Shown here one piece after another: positions 17,674 through 24,787 of a stretch of 29,098 nt of DNA (positions within the stretch are counted from its first letter, which is position 1; every line of letters begins with the position of its first letter). Source of the stretch: Candidatus Methylomirabilota bacterium (lineage in GTDB: Bacteria > Methylomirabilota > Methylomirabilia > Rokubacteriales > CSP1-6); contig JBKPAK010000194.1 in assembly GCA_046726415.1 (NCBI GenBank), forward strand, positions 1 through 29,098, read 5' to 3'. The notes beneath the pieces were generated by a model. That model had not been told where the DNA came from, did not search any database, and saw nothing but the letters and a program-made list of their open reading frames with translations. Both the position numbers and the translations under genes were made by a program.

Positions 17674-18894
17674 ATGGCATCGAACGGCAACCGTTATAAC
17701 GTCGGTGGCGTGCTGCTGCCGCGGCCATTCAAGATCCGACGCCTCGGCCACTTCGGATTCAATGCCCTGAAGATGGCCGAGGGAAAGGAGTTCTACACGG
17801 CCCTGCTCGGCTTCAAGCTATCTGACACTTTGGATTTCGGGAAGATGCCGTGGGCCCCGAAGGGCGCCGACCTCGGCGATACGCGCGGGTACTTCATGCG
17901 ATACGGGACGGACCATCACGCGTTCGTGCTCTTCAACCGGAACGTGCTCGACCACCGTCCCGACCGGACGTTCGCTTCCGACGTCACCGTCAACCAGATC
18001 ACATGGCAATGCGGCAGCCTGAAGGAGATCACCGACGCGCATACCTATTTTCATGACCGGGAGATCCCCATCCAGCGCGTGGGTCGCGACATGCCGGGGA
18101 GCAACTGGCACGTCTACGTGTACGATCCCGACGGTCACACCATCGAGCTCTACTATGGCATCGAGCAAATCGGATGGAATCAGCTGAGCAAGCCCACCGA
18201 CATGTACGACCGCGGCTTTCGCGAAAAGCCGACACTGCCCCAGATCTCGGAAATGGCCGAGGTGGCCGCGGCCCTCGACAAGGGCACCGACATCTCGTCC
18301 GGCCACCGCACTCGAGAGACGCTTCCCGAGAGCTACGAGGTGGAGGGAGTGCTGCTGCCGCGCCCCTTCAAGATCACCAAGATCGGCCCGGTGAGCCTCT
18401 TCGTGGCTGACGTGGGGCGCGCGGAGGCCTTTTACGTCGAGCACCTCGGGTTCGTCAAGAGCGAGGAGACCACCTACCAGGGCGCGCGCTGCGTGTTTCT
18501 CCGCTGCGGGACCGAGCATCACAGCGTGGGACTGTTCGCGAAGGAGCTCCGCCACCGGCTGGGACTGTCCGAGCACACCACGTGCATGTCATTCGGAGTG
18601 GAGGTAGGCAGCTACGCGCAGTTGCGGGAAGCCGTCGGATTTCTGAAATCGCACGGGGTGACCTTCGTCGACTCCATCCCGCCCGATCTCTATCCCGGCA
18701 TCGACTACGCGGCGTTCGCGCTGGACCCGGATGGGCACTGCATCCAGCTCTACTACTACATGGAGCAGGTCGGCTGGGACGGCAAGGTGAGACCCGCCAG
18801 TCAGCGGCGTACGGTGGGGCCGGGGTGGCCGGAGGCGCTGGAGCCGCTGTCCGACACCTATGTCGACCAGGTCTTCCAGGGCCCGCTGGGCTAG
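17674..18894 (+). CDS. Two-domain VOC protein, extradiol-dioxygenase-like, 406 aa
   Basis: GAGGAGG SD. Internal duplication: GVLLPRPFKI twice, DPDGH.I[EQ]LYY..EQ.GW twice. RLGHF and DHHAF motifs. Confidence 0.88.
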   Translation: MASNGNRYNVGGVLLPRPFKIRRLGHFGFNALKMAEGKEFYTALLGFKLSDTLDFGKMPWAPKGADLGDTRGYFMRYGTDHHAFVLFNRNVLDHRPDRTFASDVTVNQITWQCGSLKEITDAHTYFHDREIPIQRVGRDMPGSNWHVYVYDPDGHTIELYYGIEQIGWNQLSKPTDMYDRGFREKPTLPQISEMAEVAAALDKGTDISSGHRTRETLPESYEVEGVLLPRPFKITKIGPVSLFVADVGRAEAFYVEHLGFVKSEETTYQGARCVFLRCGTEHHSVGLFAKELRHRLGLSEHTTCMSFGVEVGSYAQLREAVGFLKSHGVTFVDSIPPDLYPGIDYAAFALDPDGHCIQLYYYMEQVGWDGKVRPASQRRTVGPGWPEALEPLSDTYVDQVFQGPLG

Positions 18895-18926
18895 GACCGC
18901 TTCCGAGTCTCGGGGAGCGCCGCAGC

Positions 18927-20024
18927 ATGTCAGCTTCGCCTGGCGTCGTCGACTCGATCGGCAACGTGCTGGCGCCGCTCCTGGGGACACTTGATCGAGT
19001 GGAGTGGGTGCAGCGACACCTCTATCCTCCCCTCGCCGAACGGCTCGCCGACGAGCTGGCGCCGAGGACGGATACCCTCGCCAGGCCGCTGCGCGCTCTG
19101 GAAACGCTCGACTGGCCGGAGCCGCTTCGCTTCGCGCGGGACCAGCTCATCGAGGGGACGCGGCAAACGCTTGACCTCGTCGAGGCATTCGTCGCCGCCG
19201 CGCGTTCGCCCGGCGATCCCATCGGCCTCTACCGGGCGCTGCGTCGCTTCGCCAGGATCCAGGCGACGCTCTACCCGCTGGCCCCGGCCTTCGAGGCGGT
19301 GAGTCGATGGTTCCTCGAGACGCCGCGCCGCGATGACGACGCCCTCGTTGCGCGGCTGCGCGCCGGCGCGCTCCGCGAGGACGATCTGCGCGTGGGGGTG
19401 CTGCACGCCGCGAACGAACGCGATGCCCGGGGCGGATTCTCCGTCTATGTCCCCGAATCGTGCGACGGGCAGACGCCGATGCCGCTGGTGGTCGCGCTGC
19501 ACGGGGGGCATGGCCATGGCCAGGACTTCCTGTGGAGCTGGCTCCGCGAGGCGCGCTCCCGCGGTGTCCTGCTGATCGCCCCGACGTCTCGCGAGCGCAC
19601 GTGGTCGATCATGGGCGGACCAGACGTCGATGCGGAGGGCCTGCGGCAGATGGTGGAGTCGGTGACCAGGCGCTACCCGGTCGACCGCGCGCGGATGCTG
19701 CTGACCGGGATGTCGGATGGCGCCACCTATGCGTTTCTCTGCGGTCTCCGCGACGACATGCCGTTCACGCACCTGGCGCCGGCGTGTGGCGTGCTGCATC
19801 CCTTCCTGTTCGGCAACGGCGGGATCGCGCGGGCGCGCGGCCGGCCGATCTACCTCATCCACGGCGCGCTCGACTGGATGTTTCCCGTGCATGCCGCGCG
19901 GATGGCCCAAGAGGCCCTGCTGGCCGTCGGCGCCCGGCTCGTGTACCGGGAAGTTGAAGACCTGTCGCACACGTACCCCCGGGACGAGAATCCGAGGATC
20001 CTCGACTGGCTGATGAACCCGTGA
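18927..20024 (+). CDS. Alpha/beta hydrolase (phospholipase/carboxylesterase) with N-terminal helical extension, 365 aa
   Basis: PLVVALHGG.G, GMSDG nucleophile elbow, HGALD and SHTY catalytic Asp/His. Confidence 0.9.
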   Translation: MSASPGVVDSIGNVLAPLLGTLDRVEWVQRHLYPPLAERLADELAPRTDTLARPLRALETLDWPEPLRFARDQLIEGTRQTLDLVEAFVAAARSPGDPIGLYRALRRFARIQATLYPLAPAFEAVSRWFLETPRRDDDALVARLRAGALREDDLRVGVLHAANERDARGGFSVYVPESCDGQTPMPLVVALHGGHGHGQDFLWSWLREARSRGVLLIAPTSRERTWSIMGGPDVDAEGLRQMVESVTRRYPVDRARMLLTGMSDGATYAFLCGLRDDMPFTHLAPACGVLHPFLFGNGGIARARGRPIYLIHGALDWMFPVHAARMAQEALLAVGARLVYREVEDLSHTYPRDENPRILDWLMNP

Positions 20025-20144
20025 ACGCGGCTCGCCGCGGGCCGCCGAGATCCGGGTCATGTGCACTCTGACGGGCAGTCAACATGCACCCGTCATTCGC
20101 TGTTGCGGCGGTGGGAGTGCTCTGCTAGTGTCGACCGCGTTGTC

Positions 20145-20304
20145 CGCGCCCAGGGTGCCCAGGAAGGGCCCCGGGAAGGCGGTGCGAATCCGCCGCGACC
20201 CCGTCACTGTAACCGGGGACGAAACCCGAGATCGCCACTGGCGACGAGCCGGGAAGGCACGGGGAGTAGGACGATCCGGAAGCCAGGAGACCGACCCGGG
20301 CGCG
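20145..20304 (+). ncRNA. Cobalamin (B12) riboswitch
   Basis: Conserved elements in order: GGT, GGGAA-GGCGGTGCGAATCCGCC, CCCCGTCACTGTAA, GCCACTG...GGGAAGG, and B12 box AGCCAGGAGACC. P1 is CGCGCCC (20145-20151) with GGGCGCG (20298-20304). Confidence 0.95.
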
Positions 20305-20306
20305 TA

Positions 20307-20336
20307 CCCTAACCGGTCTTCGCGGGAGGACCAGGG
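20307..20336 (+). promoter_or_regulatory. Riboswitch expression platform: SD-sequestering hairpin
   Basis: GGTCTTC (20315-20321), loop GCGG, GAGGACC (20326-20332), extendable by CCCT/AGGG. It buries GGAGG (20325-20329), 10 nt before ATG 20340. Confidence 0.7.
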
Positions 20337-20339
20337 ACG

Positions 20340-20405
20340 ATGGCTCGAGATTTCGTCGCTCACGTCAGGGAGCGGCCCCGCTTCATGCCGTCGGCCACGC
20401 TCTAG
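20340..20405 (+). CDS. 21-aa leader/micro-ORF under riboswitch control (MARDFVAHVRERPRFMPSATL)
   Basis: First ATG after the sequestered SD, ends in TAG, and is in frame with the downstream ORF at 20478. Confidence 0.45.
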   Translation: MARDFVAHVRERPRFMPSATL

Positions 20406-20477
20406 CTCGGTCCCCGCGCCTGGGATGCGTGCGCCGACGGTCCACGAATCCACCCTGCGCCGCCATGCGAGCGTCGC

Positions 20478-20822
20478 ATGATCGGCGTCCCGAGGCGCAT
20501 CAGCTCGCCGCGGGCCGCGGAGATTCTCCGCCAGGTCTTCGGTCACATCGCCACCGGCTGCGCGTTCCGCCTCTGGGATGGGACGTGCGTCCCGCTCGGC
20601 AGCGGAGCGCAGGTGTGCACAGCCGTCGTGCACCGGCCGGACACCTTCATCCGGCTCATGCGCGACCCGACTCCGCTCACCTTCGCCGAAGCCTATGTGG
20701 AGGGCGCCATCGACGTCGAGGGCGACCTGTTTGCGGCGATGGGCATCGCGAACTCGATCGAGGAGATGCGCCTCTCGTTCGCCGATCGGATGCGAATCTT
20801 TCTGGCCCTCTGGCGAGGCTGA
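20478..20822 (+). CDS. Stand-alone CFA-synthase N-terminal (lipid-binding) domain, 114 aa
   Basis: FRLWDG...TAVV.RP....RL.RDP..L.FAEAYVEG.IDVEGDL matches the N-terminal domain of long CFA synthases. The ORF stops at 20822. Confidence 0.82.
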   Translation: MIGVPRRISSPRAAEILRQVFGHIATGCAFRLWDGTCVPLGSGAQVCTAVVHRPDTFIRLMRDPTPLTFAEAYVEGAIDVEGDLFAAMGIANSIEEMRLSFADRMRIFLALWRG

Positions 20823-20823
20823 C

Positions 20824-21951
20824 GTGGCCGAGCACGACGTGATCGTGATCGGTGGTGGACCGGGGGGGAGCACTGCGGCCTGGCGACTCGTCCGGGCCGG
20901 CCTCCGGCCTCTCCTCCTTGACGCTGCGGTCTTTCCGAGGGTGAAAGTGTGCGCGGGCTGGGTCACTCCCGAGGCGCTGGCCGACGCCGAAGTGGACCCG
21001 GAAGAGTATCCGGCGACGATCCAGGCCTTCTCTGCCTGCCGCTTCGAGTTCGAGGGCGCGCTCCACGAAACGCGATGGCGGAGGCCGGCCAGCTACGGCA
21101 TCGTCAGGCGAGAGTTCGACCACTACCTTCTGGATCGCGCCCGCGCCGCTGGCGCTGACGTGCGCGAGGGGGCTCGCGTGACCGCGGTGATCCCGGGGGC
21201 GGGTGGGATCCAGGTCGCGAGCGAGCGCGGTGTCTTCTCGGCAGCCGTGGTCATCGGGGCGGGGGGCCATCGTTGCCCGGTGGCTCAGGCGCTTGGCGAG
21301 GTCTCCGGGCGGGAAGAGGTCGTGATCGCCCAGGAGAGCGAGACGCGGCTGCCGCCTGATCGCGTCCGGGTGCTCGGGCAGTTCTGGCAGACGCCGGAGC
21401 TCTACGTCGAGCCTGATCTGAAAGGCTACGGCTGGTACTTCCCCAAGGGCGACGTCCTCAACGTCGGCATCGGGTGCGTCTCCGGGCCGGCCTCGGATCT
21501 GCCCCGGCGGCGGGAGGCCCTCGTCGGGGCACTGCGCGCCTCCGGCCGCTTACCCACTGATCTCTCCATCGCGCCGTTTCGCGGCCACGCCTATGTCGTG
21601 CGGCGCCGGGCGCCGCGTCGGCTCGCCGGCGAGCGGTTCTGTCTCGTGGGCGACGCCGCGGGACTGGCGCGTGATCTCAGCGGCGAGGGCATCGGGCCAG
21701 CCATCCGCAGTGGAATCCTCGCCGCCGAAGCCGTCGAAGCTCATCTGCGGCGCGGCACCGCGCTCGAGTCGTACGCGCGCCAGATCGTTCGCCGCTACGG
21801 AGCGGGAGAGGTGGGCTGGCTCGGCCGGCGTCTGGCTCGGGTTCCTGACGCCATCGCGCGCGCCGCGGTGCGCGCCGTGCTGCGGACGGCGGCGACGCGG
21901 CGGCGCGTGGTCCTGGGGCGCATCTTCGGCATGCGGGAGGTGGCGTCATGA
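20824..21951 (+). CDS. Geranylgeranyl-reductase-like FAD-dependent oxidoreductase, 375 aa
   Basis: DVIVIGGGPGGS, FPRVKVCAG, RREFD..L...A, GYGWYFPKG (YxWxFP), LVGDAAG and GEGI motifs. GTG start 1 nt after the upstream stop. Confidence 0.9.
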   Translation: MAEHDVIVIGGGPGGSTAAWRLVRAGLRPLLLDAAVFPRVKVCAGWVTPEALADAEVDPEEYPATIQAFSACRFEFEGALHETRWRRPASYGIVRREFDHYLLDRARAAGADVREGARVTAVIPGAGGIQVASERGVFSAAVVIGAGGHRCPVAQALGEVSGREEVVIAQESETRLPPDRVRVLGQFWQTPELYVEPDLKGYGWYFPKGDVLNVGIGCVSGPASDLPRRREALVGALRASGRLPTDLSIAPFRGHAYVVRRRAPRRLAGERFCLVGDAAGLARDLSGEGIGPAIRSGILAAEAVEAHLRRGTALESYARQIVRRYGAGEVGWLGRRLARVPDAIARAAVRAVLRTAATRRRVVLGRIFGMREVAS

Positions 21952-22853
21952 AACCACGAAGCCGAAAGGCGGACGCTCAGGCGATCGCCCATCACTACGA
22001 CGTCTCCAACGAATTCTACGCGCTGTTCCTCGATCCGCTCATGGTGTACACCTGCGCGTACTATCGGGATCCCGACGGTAAGCTCGAGCAGGCGCAGCAG
22101 GACAAGCTCGACCTGGTGTGTCGCAAGCTCGAGCTCCAGCCGGGCGAGGCGCTGCTCGACATCGGCTGCGGCTGGGGCAGCCTGGCGATCTGGGCAGCCC
22201 AGCACTACGGCGTCCGCGCCCATGGGGTGACGCTGTCGCAGGCCCAGGCGTCCTACGCCGCCGAGCGGATCCGGCGCGAGGGAATTGAGGAGCGCTGCCG
22301 GGTCGACTACCTGGACTACCGAGACCTACCGGCGAGCGCCTCCTACGACAAGATCGCCGCGGTGGGCGTGATCGAGCACGTCGGGATCCCGCACTACCCG
22401 ACGTTCTTCAGCGCCGTGCGCGCCATGCTCAGGGACGGAGGCCTCTATCTCAACCACGGCATCGTCCACGAGTTCCACTGGAAGCCCACCAGCCAGACCG
22501 AATTCCTGTACCGGCATGTTTTTCCCAACGGCGACCTCGCGGGGCTCAGCGAGACGCTGACCGAGATGGAGCGCGCGGGCCTGGAGATCGTCGACGTCGA
22601 GGCCCTTCGCCTCCACTACGCCCGGACGTGCCGGCAGTGGGTCGAACGGCTGCGCGCGCGCGCCGACGAGGCTCGAGCCCTGGCTGGCGAGCGCACGTAC
22701 CGGACCTGGCTGCTGTACCTGACCTGTTCCACGGTCGCCTTCGAAAGCGGATCGATCGGTCTCTACCAGGTGCTCATGCAGAAGCACCAGGATCCCGCGG
22801 TGGGTCGCGCGCCCCGCACGCGCGAGCACCTCTATGACACAACGCCCCGATGA
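21948..22853 (+). CDS. cfa: Cyclopropane-fatty-acyl-phospholipid synthase family SAM methyltransferase, catalytic domain only
   Basis: IAHHYDVSNEFY, MVYTCAYY, AQQDKLD, LLDIGCGWG, GVTLS, EHVG and HYART motifs. ATGA overlap with the upstream gene. Confidence 0.93.
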   Translation: MKPRSRKADAQAIAHHYDVSNEFYALFLDPLMVYTCAYYRDPDGKLEQAQQDKLDLVCRKLELQPGEALLDIGCGWGSLAIWAAQHYGVRAHGVTLSQAQASYAAERIRREGIEERCRVDYLDYRDLPASASYDKIAAVGVIEHVGIPHYPTFFSAVRAMLRDGGLYLNHGIVHEFHWKPTSQTEFLYRHVFPNGDLAGLSETLTEMERAGLEIVDVEALRLHYARTCRQWVERLRARADEARALAGERTYRTWLLYLTCSTVAFESGSIGLYQVLMQKHQDPAVGRAPRTREHLYDTTPR

Positions 22854-22877
22854 CGGGGAGGTTGGAAAGGACACGGC

Positions 22878-23618
22878 TTGATTCATCAGATCCTCATCAT
22901 CGCGCTCGCCTCGTTCGCCCTGGCCCAGATCGCCACGGTGGCCACGTCGATCTACCTCCATCGCGCGCTCGCCCACCGATCACTGTCATTGCGACCGTTC
23001 GGGGCCATCGCGTTCCGCGCCGTCCTGTGGCTCCTGACCGGACAGAGCCGGCAGCAGTGGGTGGCGGTCCACCGGAAGCATCACACCTTCGCCGATCGCC
23101 AGGGTGATCCGCACAGCCCGTTGCTCCTGGGCTTCTGGAAAGTGCAGCTGTTGAACGTGTACTACTACATCCAGGAGGCGCGGAATCCCGAAACCGTGCA
23201 GAAATTCGCCCCGGACCTGGCGGCGGATTGGTGGGAGCGGTACGTGTTCTCCCGAGGATGGACGGGCCTGGGGCTCGGCACGGCGCTCCTGGGCCTGGCC
23301 CTGGGCTGGTGGCAAGGGGTGCTCGCCATGCTCGGGCAGGGGATCATCTACATGTTCGTGCTCGCCCCGCTCATCAACGGACTGGGGCACTGGCGGGGCG
23401 CCCAGAACTTCCGAAACACCGCGTACAACTCCCGCGTACTGGCCTGGCTGACGGGAGGCGAAAGCCTGCACAACAACCACCACGCCTTTCCGCGATCGCC
23501 GAAGTTCAGCCTGCGGAGATCAGAGCTCGATCCATCGTGGGTGGCCATACGGGTGTTGGCCGCCATGAGGCTGATCGTGGTCGTGGGCGCGCCACTCAAG
23601 GCCCGGCCGACGCGCTGA
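22878..23618 (+). CDS. Membrane fatty-acid desaturase (Delta-9-like)
   Basis: Three His boxes HRALAH, HRKHH and HNNHH, plus DPHSP and hydrophobic segments. TTG start. Confidence 0.92.
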   Translation: MIHQILIIALASFALAQIATVATSIYLHRALAHRSLSLRPFGAIAFRAVLWLLTGQSRQQWVAVHRKHHTFADRQGDPHSPLLLGFWKVQLLNVYYYIQEARNPETVQKFAPDLAADWWERYVFSRGWTGLGLGTALLGLALGWWQGVLAMLGQGIIYMFVLAPLINGLGHWRGAQNFRNTAYNSRVLAWLTGGESLHNNHHAFPRSPKFSLRRSELDPSWVAIRVLAAMRLIVVVGAPLKARPTR

Positions 23619-23728
23619 GCGCGTGTCGACGAATCGAAAGCGAAAGCGCCCGGGGTCGCGGGAGCCCGATCGGGCCCGCCATGTTTCCGGGCCGCGCCGC
23701 ATTCGACGCCACGGAAGGATGGAGGAAC

Positions 23729-24787
23729 ATGACCGAGCCACTCGATCTGACCCTCGCACTCTCTCCGAGAGCGCGCTTCGACGTGGTCGAGCTGAGGTCC
23801 CGTTTCTCGATCGAGCACCGCGACGCCCTGGCGCCGTACCCACACTGCCTCTACTGGTCGGCGCATACCACGGCCGGCTTCCTGGATCGCCGCCTGACCG
23901 CCCGCCTCGGCCCAGCGCGAGTGCCGACGTACGTCGACGTCCTGCGTCAGATCTTCCCGGAGGGCGCGGGCTACGCCCATGACCGGCTCGAGCGCCGCCT
24001 CGATCTCGACGCCGCTCAGCGCGCCGTCGAGCCGCGCAACGCGGATTCGCATCTGGCCTTCATCGCGGGTGGCCTCCGGTCGTGCGTGACCCACCCGAAC
24101 CGAATGGGCGAGGCGGTCTACTTCGTCGATCTCGATGGTGTCACCGAGGGCCGCCCGCGCCGCCGACTCACGCGGGTGATCGGTTTCCAGCGCGAGGCCA
24201 TCGCCGGCCGACTGCGAACCCAGGTGCCGGTGTCCATGCATCCCATCGATTCCATCAACCTCAAGGACCCCAAACTCGGCCTCTACGACCAGCTCTCCGA
24301 CTTCGTGATCAGGACCGGCGTGGGCAAGGGCCGACTGCACATCGCGCTCGATCCAAGCGAGCGACACGCCGCGCTGACCGTCAACGAGTTCGAGACGCTC
24401 CTGATGAAGTACGACCTGGCGGCGGTGTTGCGGAACCCACTGCGCTTCGTGGCCGAAGAGTATCGGCAGGCGCTGGCGAACCCGCGTGCCGTAGCCGGGA
24501 AGGCACTCGGCTACGCCAAGTACGACCTCGTCCGGGTGCTCAATTCCGGCCTCGACACGCTGGGGCTGCGGGGCTCGATCGTCGAGAAGGTGCTCGCGCG
24601 CACCCTGGCCGTTCCGGCCGCCCGGTTCTTCCGAATTCGGCGGTCCATCAACTTGCTGGTGGCCGAACGGGCCCGTGGCCTCCCCGGGCTCGTGGAGGGC
24701 GTTTATCAGAGTCCGATTCTCGTCCAGTGGCAACGCGCGCCTCGCCAGGCGCGCCTGCTCGACGTCACGTTGACCCGGCTGGAGTAG
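23729..24787 (+). CDS. Hypothetical protein, apparent tandem YjbQ/UPF0047-like domains, 352 aa
   Basis: GGAGG SD. N-half has HTTAG, YAHD, NADSH and DLDG..R.R. C-half has AALTVNE.E..L..DL and G.YQ..L..W.....R...V. Confidence 0.7.
   Translation: MTEPLDLTLALSPRARFDVVELRSRFSIEHRDALAPYPHCLYWSAHTTAGFLDRRLTARLGPARVPTYVDVLRQIFPEGAGYAHDRLERRLDLDAAQRAVEPRNADSHLAFIAGGLRSCVTHPNRMGEAVYFVDLDGVTEGRPRRRLTRVIGFQREAIAGRLRTQVPVSMHPIDSINLKDPKLGLYDQLSDFVIRTGVGKGRLHIALDPSERHAALTVNEFETLLMKYDLAAVLRNPLRFVAEEYRQALANPRAVAGKALGYAKYDLVRVLNSGLDTLGLRGSIVEKVLARTLAVPAARFFRIRRSINLLVAERARGLPGLVEGVYQSPILVQWQRAPRQARLLDVTLTRLE

Follow-up and report, generated by a model that had tools for sequence, protein, structure and literature searches.

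A candidate cobalamin-repressed operon for mid-chain methyl-branched fatty acids in a Rokubacteria genome

The window, a 29 kb stretch of DNA (29,098 nucleotides, contig JBKPAK010000194.1) from a Rokubacteria (Methylomirabilota) soil bacterium, was found to contain a cobalamin (vitamin B12) riboswitch followed by five co-oriented genes, here called g1 to g5 (Table 1). Judged from the sequence, this locus is probably a cobalamin-repressed operon for mid-chain methyl-branched fatty acids, the Rokubacteria version of the tmpBA ("ten-methyl palmitate") operon (Blitzblau et al., 2021, PMC7791843; this and the other papers are cited from excerpts). The operon genes most likely make 10-methyl-branched membrane fatty acids, and they are an unusual target for a cobalamin riboswitch. 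New here are the presence of a cobalamin riboswitch on the tmp pathway, a gene order in which tmpB is split and interleaved with tmpA, the added desaturase and tandem-YjbQ genes, and a leader history that reads as capture followed by repeated loss.

In the proposed model, binding of B12 would stabilize a hairpin which buries the Shine-Dalgarno (SD) sequence, blocking translation initiation. The blocked start would be that of g1 itself in a related locus (L036) and that of a 21-codon leader open reading frame (ORF) in the window, with the effect reaching the downstream genes directly, through translational coupling or through Rho-type polarity. Because of the riboswitch anatomy, the operon would be expected to be made when B12 is scarce. 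The g4 desaturase would then desaturate an acyl chain in cis, probably at the delta-9 position, a split TmpB (g1 as the lipid-binding half, g3 as the catalytic half) would add a methylene group derived from S-adenosylmethionine (SAM) at C10, and g2, a TmpA-like protein of the geranylgeranyl reductase (GGR) type, would reduce the methylene to a methyl group. As to its origin, the promoter-like element, aptamer and platform, and probably the first cobU bases, would have been copied from the leader of the cob salvage operon and inserted in front of the cluster on a single occasion, in the ancestor of one subclade of Rokubacteria, after which many descendants may have deleted the riboswitch and kept the promoter-like element.

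Gene content and likeness to tmpBA

The frames of the five genes are backed by frame statistics of third-codon-position G+C content (GC3) and by the ORF listing. A gap of 1 nt separates g1 from g2, g2 and g3 overlap as ATGA, and 24 nt and 110 nt lie between g3 and g4 and between g4 and g5, respectively.

Cyclopropane fatty acid (CFA) synthase has a small N-terminal lipid-binding domain and a SAM-binding catalytic domain (PMC11387697), and both domains of the family (PF25371 and PF02353) were found here on two polypeptides, g1 and g3. The former aligns to positions 8–82 of the CfaB model and the latter to positions 99–393, so that they read as the N-half and the C-half of a split TmpB. An N-domain ORF of the g1 type was present in all 23 Rokubacteria loci compared. 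The catalytic half matches the CFA synthase structures 7qos, 5z9o and 6bqc (E 3e-64 to 5e-46), its motifs IEHVG, NHGI and LYL align identically with those of cyclopropane synthase structures, and it is the sole true CMAS of the genome, with the runner-up at 54 bits. In contrast to CFA synthase, the two domains are here encoded by separate genes, and the predicted product carries a methylene or methyl branch instead of a cyclopropane ring.

The g2 protein scored 175.8 bits against TIGR02032, above the curated cut-off of 158.8, which places it in the GGR family, and its closest solved relative is digeranylgeranylglycerophospholipid reductase (3oz2, E 7e-15). An alignment of the g2 family displays the motif YGWYFPx8GIG and an invariant Cys43, which we take to be signature motifs of that family. 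The g4 protein carries three His boxes readable in the translation (HRALAH, HRKHH, HNNHH) and scored 201.5 bits against the DesA-family model NF049918, which is under the cut-off of 400 and covers positions 10–240 of 385. Its only solved relatives are acyl-CoA (delta-9) desaturases (4ymk and 4zyo, E 4e-4), and it is one of three desaturase-family genes in the genome.

No Pfam or NCBIfam match was obtained for g5 even at E<=10, with Pfam also tried on each half. An AlphaFold (AF2) model built from 27 homologues (predicted local distance difference test score, pLDDT, 86) aligned with 1vph over residues 1–154 (Z 13.6) and with 2p6h over residues 159–351 (Z 13.5), while unrelated folds reached 5.8 at most; the predicted fold thus confirms the YjbQ fold twice over. 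Relatives of g5 are annotated as "YjbQ (UPF0047)" by the Joint Genome Institute, and the invariant residues H46, H84, D85 and H108 all lie in the N-half. A role for g5 as an obligate partner of TmpA was ruled out by the phylogenetic profile: it occurs in 17 of 53 TmpA-bearing genomes of family f1 and in 7 genomes without TmpA, and is unlinked in 5 genomes.

The closest known system is tmpBA. TmpB of Marinobacter hydrocarbonoclasticus, Thiohalospira halophila, Desulfobacter postgatei and Desulfobacula toluolica was reported to convert 16:1-delta-9 to 10-methylene-16:0 in E. coli, and TmpA, similar to archaeal geranylgeranyl reductases, is described as a putative reductase (PMC7791843). The window shares the adjacent pair of a Cfa-family SAM methyltransferase and a GGR-like flavoprotein. 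The same pair recurs in loci from other phyla retrieved with g2 (Marinobacter daepoensis, Thiohalorhabdus, a zetaproteobacterium, Phycisphaerales, Lentisphaeria and three gammaproteobacterial metagenome-assembled genomes (MAGs) among them), where a full-length Cfa gene stands directly upstream of the GGR-like gene in 9 of 10 cases and the tenth (L029) begins inside the reductase gene. Compared with such pairs from M. daepoensis, Thiohalorhabdus, Phycisphaerales and others, g3 is 38–48% and g2 37–44% identical, the comparison having used congeners (M. daepoensis, L034; Thiohalorhabdus, L027) and not the exact proteins assayed in PMC7791843.

The Rokubacteria cluster differs from tmpBA in belonging to another phylum and in adding a desaturase and a tandem-YjbQ gene; it differs further by the cobalamin riboswitch of the window, none being detected in the 10 loci of tmpBA type retrieved from other phyla. 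In each of the 23 Rokubacteria loci the N-domain gene is followed by the reductase gene and then by that for the catalytic domain, which places tmpA between the TmpB halves. Seventeen of these continue with g4 and g5, two (L009 and L016) lack both, one has g5 without g4 and three end too early. A further TmpB-like gene without the N-domain was observed in a Thiohalorhabdus MAG (L027:4423-5765; 296 aa), preceded by a 133-aa ORF without a Pfam match, and may be a second, independent split of TmpB. The actinobacterial bfaAB/tmsAB systems for 10-methylstearate (tuberculostearic acid) use the same chemistry, SAM-dependent methylenation of a delta-9 acyl chain followed by reduction. They differ in that BfaA is an unrelated FAD (flavin adenine dinucleotide) oxidase-type protein, the gene order is opposite and a riboswitch is not described in the excerpt (PMC7791843).

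That the operon includes a desaturase points to acyl substrates, and the best reading of the gene set is a predicted route of desaturation, SAM-dependent methylation and reduction to a mid-chain methyl-branched acyl chain, as already published for tmpBA. An earlier note, made from the sequence alone, had proposed the same route with only BfaAB/TmsAB as precedents and without citing tmpBA. Its identities for g1 to g4 and their co-orientation agree with the domain matches and the GC3 frame statistics, all four spacings it gave are correct, and the tandem YjbQ protein it had recognized is borne out by the predicted fold and not by a sequence-family match. It had also called the riboswitch canonical, which holds, its start of 20145 lying 10 nt inside the aptamer. 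It had further stated that none of the cluster genes serves B12 transport or biosynthesis, and domain searches detected no such gene in the cluster or elsewhere in the window. The methylomirabilotal host, which it had raised only as a condition, proved to be the case, the host belonging to the Rokubacteria branch; the relatives of g2 at 74–84% identity are all from Rokubacteria/Methylomirabilota MAGs.

Table 1. Coordinates of the leader elements and genes of the cluster in the window.
Feature	Position	Strand	Length	Basis
Promoter-like element	20103..20131	+		-35 TTGCGG 20103-20108, 17-nt spacer, -10 TAGTGT 20126-20131, TGC before the -10
Cobalamin riboswitch aptamer, RF00174	20135..20313	+		full model, 99.8 bits
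Expression platform hairpin, GGUCUUC-GCGG-GAGGACC	20312..20339	+		3' strand holds the Shine-Dalgarno sequence GGAGGA 20325-20330
Leader upstream ORF (MARDFVAHVRERPRFMPSATL)	20340..20405	+	21 codons	start behind the riboswitch-controlled Shine-Dalgarno sequence; stop TAG 20403-20405, frame of g1
g1, free-standing CFA-synthase N-terminal (lipid-binding) domain	20478..20822	+	114 aa	PF25371/DUF7884, 31.9 bits (cut-off 27)
g2, GGR-family FAD flavoprotein, TmpA-like putative methylene reductase	20824 (GTG)..21951	+	375 aa	TIGR02032 GG-red-SF
g3, CMAS/Cfa-type SAM methyltransferase catalytic domain	21948..22853	+	301 aa	PF02353, 308.5 bits
g4, small membrane fatty-acid desaturase (SCD/DesA-like)	22878..23618	+	246 aa	PF00487, 62.8 bits; three His boxes
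g5, tandem YjbQ/UPF0047-fold protein	23729..24787	+	352 aa	predicted fold

The riboswitch, its leader and their history

The cobalamin riboswitch is the only Rfam family matched in the window. It covers the whole aptamer (model positions 1–189 of 189) and scored far above the gathering score of 31.5 bits (E 4e-24). The element just upstream, common to the six loci which carry the riboswitch and with the invariant pattern T..TG.TA.TGT, is presumed to act as its promoter. A consensus scanner returned no promoter-like (sigma-70) sites, the consensus being poorly informative in this GC-rich phylum. A terminator scan gave two terminator-like sites, both intragenic and not above shuffled sequence, and is likewise uninformative at such G+C content.

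Directly behind the aptamer, the platform segment is near-invariant in all six loci (ACCGGTCTTCG(A/C)GGG(A/G)GG(A/G)CC), with a start codon 7–9 nt past GGAGG in each. The platform hairpin is the minimum free energy (MFE) structure of the local sequence and has 9 consensus pairs, three of them with one-sided changes that keep the pairing. In L036 the riboswitch-controlled start is that of g1. In the others it opens an upstream ORF (uORF) of 21 codons in the window, 21 in L025, 16 in L026, 12 in L012 and 8 in L016; the stop overlaps the g1 ATG as ATGA in L012 and L016, whereas the uORFs of the window, L025 and L026 terminate 72–100 nt before g1. This anatomy points to a translational OFF switch. 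In solved cobalamin riboswitches, a kissing loop between L5 and a hairpin loop mediates switching, and the loop of the platform hairpin may act in this way here. One idea, formed by eye and not predicted by the MFE fold, is that GGUCUUC may alternatively pair with the B12-box GGAGACC.

An intact RF00174 aptamer was found directly before g1 in 5 of the 23 Rokubacteria loci (L012, L016, L025, L026 and L036; 93.5–108.8 bits), and L006 gave a marginal partial match. Across 151 genomes sampled systematically from the phylum, a TmpA-like gene (E<=1e-40) was found in 55, of which 52 were among the 93 of family f1 and none among the 18 of family f5. Upstream regions were taken for 50 of the 55, omitting the window's own genome (G000), two unpublished genomes, G135 (too little upstream sequence) and G026 (a 37% paralogue), and a permissive Rfam scan of them yielded 3 intact riboswitches (G110, G052, G132), 2 weak remnants (G025, G015) and 45 regions with none. 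Three of the five further intact copies were thus recovered in an independent sample.

Misassembly or a chimera was ruled out as the source of the junction. The earlier note had warned that relatives might show a cob or btuB gene between riboswitch and cluster; in five other genomes the riboswitch immediately precedes the cluster, with neither gene in between. In addition, contigs from four soil metagenome runs of four studies span the stretch between a point within the aptamer (20263 or 20306) and about 22180, bridging it to g3; one of the runs may be the source sample. No RNA run was listed as a holder of the sequence. Short Logan contigs break in the conserved aptamer core (20171-20292), whose k-mers are shared with other riboswitches, and these breaks were not read as a gap. 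In L026 and L036, two Rokubacteria MAGs from the same project, the tblastn matches to g2 and g3 are broken into several segments while the riboswitches are intact, and the breaks are either frameshifts or sequencing errors of a long-read assembly.

The genome of the window is 7.6 Mb in size and 98% complete and has a working B12 regulon. Of its four RF00174 copies, the three outside the window precede the gene for a 793-aa MetE, a salvage operon of cobT/cbiA type and the gene for a 688-aa TonB-type receptor. The window leader is 78% identical to the cob-operon riboswitch of its own genome, compared with 53–54% to those of metE and btuB, and the likeness spans the promoter-like element, aptamer and platform. 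Past the SD, bases 20348-20360 (13 nt) exactly match the coding start of the cobU gene behind the cob riboswitch; 12 of 1000 shuffles scored equally, and as a trace of leader copying the match is suggestive only. In L036, a cob riboswitch followed by cobU and cobT lies 3 kb away on the opposite strand.

In a tree of 22 riboswitches, five of the six tmp-type copies fall in one clade (support 0.898), sister to copies before cbiA-like genes, and the L026 copy sits on a long branch. In a quick tree of the g2 and g3 proteins, loci with the riboswitch occur throughout the subclade of at least 74% identity, a scatter explained by leader deletions. In nine loci without the switch (L005, L008, L006, L021, L020, L023, L024, L014, L010), the promoter-like element is retained together with the initial 10–90 nt of the aptamer, after which the sequence continues directly at the start of g1; the deletions have at least five distinct end points. 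Of 49 sampled regions upstream of g1, 14 contain the promoter-like motif, and all 14 belong to this subclade. More distant genera have unrelated upstream sequence, with TTGACA-type elements or direct coupling to an upstream gene. These patterns indicate that the cob leader was captured once and that the riboswitch was excised many times.

More widely in this Rokubacteria lineage (G000:C111:23899-24084; L118-L129 from G132, G052, G025, G100, G040 and G015), a paralogous family of cobalamin riboswitches with up to five copies per genome was observed. Its members share one promoter-like element and one platform (ACCGGTCTTCGCGGGAGG) and precede cobU, cbiA/cobB-like, periplasmic-binding-protein and other genes.

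Cobalamin control and competing explanations

Several observations weigh against a B12-repressed tmp operon. On the biochemical side, TmpA was inactive in E. coli and yeast and its activity has never been demonstrated in any host (PMC7791843), for which reason the reduction step assigned to g2 is only inferred. The tmpBA operon has tmpB before tmpA and a single-polypeptide TmpB, an arrangement not found here. Splitting the E. coli CFA synthase into its two domains lowered activity (PMC11387697), which makes the natural split of TmpB notable. On the regulatory side, no compensatory change was found in the platform hairpin in the consensus fold of the six loci, and the hairpin does not fold more stably than shuffled sequences (z -0.81 and z 0.05). 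The uORF of the window stops 72 nt before g1, which has no obvious SD, so that coupling of the switch to g1 is only inferred there. With both genome sets merged and the window's own included, the riboswitch is intact in 6 of 61 distinct cluster-bearing genomes, and the duplicated cob leader together with repeated deletion in relatives implies that B12 control is dispensable.

The lipid 10-methyl C16:0 (10MeC16:0) is called typical of Methylomirabilis (PMC6581649, citing Kool 2012), and the earlier note had connected this signature lipid with the cluster, a connection which did not hold. Four pmoA-bearing genomes of family f5, genus g46 (G004, G005, G007, G008; 2.5–3.0 Mb), contained no genuine Cfa, with PF02353 scores of 38.9 bits at best, and none of the 18 f5 genomes yielded a TmpA. 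As 10MeC16:0 is nevertheless reported, the route there would be neither Bfa nor Tmp. A search of G008 for a B12-dependent fatty-acid methylase gave no candidate: its only four B12-binding proteins are a methylmalonyl-CoA mutase small subunit, HpnR, MetH and one untyped radical-SAM protein, whose gene lies between exosortase-like and glycosyltransferase genes.

The reason why B12 should control this cluster can be read in more than one way. It is possible, at well under even chances, that acquisition of a promoter and leader was what was selected and that the riboswitch came as a passenger, with repression real wherever the aptamer survives, no isozyme logic behind it and the element now being deleted. 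The paralogy of the tmp leader with cob/cbiA leaders of the same lineage, including promoter-like element and platform, the cobU-start match at the corresponding place, and the nine switchless loci with their retained promoter-like elements and varied end points all fit this account, as do the few intact copies and the unrelated upstream sequences from which distant genera drive the cluster. Yet the six intact aptamers score 93–109 bits and the platform is near-invariant while the cluster proteins are at 74–84% identity, which implies purifying selection on the switch in those lineages; this long conservation argues for a functional switch in the lineages that have retained it. A recurring link is also hinted at by the B12 riboswitch reported elsewhere upstream of a fatty-acid desaturase (PMC2211319).

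An unlikely alternative is that the cluster is the B12-independent member of a functional pair, supplying a methylated lipid when a B12-dependent route fails, be it one through a class B radical-SAM methylase (HpnR, for example) or one in which an acyl-CoA mutase supplies branched units. OFF-type cobalamin riboswitches before genes which need no B12 are known from the metE/metH and nrdAB/nrdJ paradigm, and the metE of this genome, which also has MetH, is an instance. The genome further encodes a corrinoid protein, three acyl-CoA mutase large subunits, two small B12 subunits, the hopanoid C-3 methylase HpnR (TIGR04367, 861.9 bits against a cut-off of 650; G000:C256:35-1543), HpnJ (770.7 bits, G000:C179) and further B12-radical-SAM proteins including an untyped one of 605 aa. 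Only three TP_methylase genes were found, from which it looks like a corrinoid salvager rather than a maker, and HpnR is present in all four sampled genomes with an intact tmp riboswitch. The paradigm differs from the present case in that a B12-dependent enzyme with the same product is neither known nor found here: HpnR yields 3-methylhopanoids and not methyl-branched fatty acids, which would mean compensation rather than isofunction, and none of HpnR, HpnJ, the radical-SAM protein and the mutases is known for 10-methyl fatty acids.

HpnR co-occurrence was rejected as an isozyme test, since it does not discriminate between genomes with and without the switch. HpnR is also encoded by 26 of the 49 other TmpA-bearing f1 genomes, and the switch was lost repeatedly with HpnR kept (e.g., G117, G040, G100), contrary to a tight pair. 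Among the 94 f1 genomes including that of the window, 30 have TmpA and HpnR, 23 TmpA only, 15 HpnR only and 26 neither, a weak association in a set which includes the unpublished G058 and G101 and whose genomes are related and not independent. The proposal of the earlier note that the cluster substitutes for a B12-dependent radical-SAM lipid methylase received no direct support. Quite doubtful, too, is the wider notion that lipid methylation in Methylomirabilota forms a B12-dependent/-independent pair, with class B radical-SAM enzymes (HpnR making 3-methylhopanoids, or a hypothetical B12-dependent fatty-acid methylase) acting when cobalamin is available and desaturase, TmpB and TmpA yielding 10-methyl fatty acids when it is scarce, and with the Methylomirabilis-like genomes holding the alternative route. 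As a separate observation, HpnR was found in 63 of the 151 sampled genomes of the phylum, so that 3-methylhopanoids are likely widespread in Rokubacteria.

It seems improbable that the cluster modifies a non-acyl target (an isoprenoid, a quinone or a hopanoid side chain), or stops at a cyclopropane or methylene product with the GGR-like protein otherwise employed. Such an account would draw on the family of g2, whose known members reduce isoprenoid double bonds, on the lack of demonstrated TmpA activity and on the catalytic motifs which g3 shares with cyclopropane synthases. Against it, the homologous Cfa and GGR-like pairs are tmpBA operons whose methyltransferase acts on delta-9 fatty acids (PMC7791843), the cluster has an acyl-type desaturase and a CFA-type lipid-binding N-domain, and no isoprenoid genes were found in the window.

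The earlier note knew of no described riboswitch-controlled operon of this kind, and this has to be qualified. Kazanov, Vitreschak and Gelfand (2007, PMC2211319) reported a metagenomic B12 riboswitch upstream of the fatty-acid desaturase ole1 (COG1398) and put forward the same isozyme hypothesis; their case concerns a desaturase only, the methyltransferase/reductase module not being mentioned in the excerpt. A literature search found no paper combining a cobalamin riboswitch with cyclopropane, or Rokubacteria with a riboswitch, and one that combined a B12 riboswitch with a fatty-acid desaturase.

If B12 truly gates the operon favored here, vitamin supply would shape the membrane lipids of an abundant uncultured soil phylum, as well as the 10-methyl C16 lipid class which is used as a biomarker by geochemists. 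The Rokubacteria cluster, with a putative split TmpB, TmpA, desaturase and YjbQ-like protein, is a compact natural gene set for settling how TmpA works. The nested deletions appear to document clearly how a riboswitch was acquired along with a duplicated leader and afterwards repeatedly shed, which bears on how regulons grow and shrink. For the Methylomirabilis-like methanotrophs, the implication is that their signature 10-methyl fatty acid must be formed by a non-Bfa, non-Tmp route.

Neighboring genes

The next gene downstream of g5 encodes a 2-oxoglutarate (2OG)-Fe(II) oxygenase on the minus strand and is convergent with the cluster, and the remainder of the window consists of unrelated catabolic genes. 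Directly upstream of the riboswitch, the gene at 18891-20024 gave a weak Abhydrolase_2 match (E 1.5e-4) below the cut-off. No related locus has a counterpart of this gene upstream of the cluster, which suggests that cluster and leader move independently of their neighbors. Elsewhere in the genome, just upstream of the metE riboswitch, a segment (G000:C294:4047-4511) reads by eye from its translation like a ribonucleotide-reductase beta-subunit-like fragment. Within the window, a 144-aa ORF at 7881-8315 matches only positions 3–113 of the 333-position Ldh_2 (malate/L-lactate dehydrogenase) model and may be a truncated gene or a fragment.

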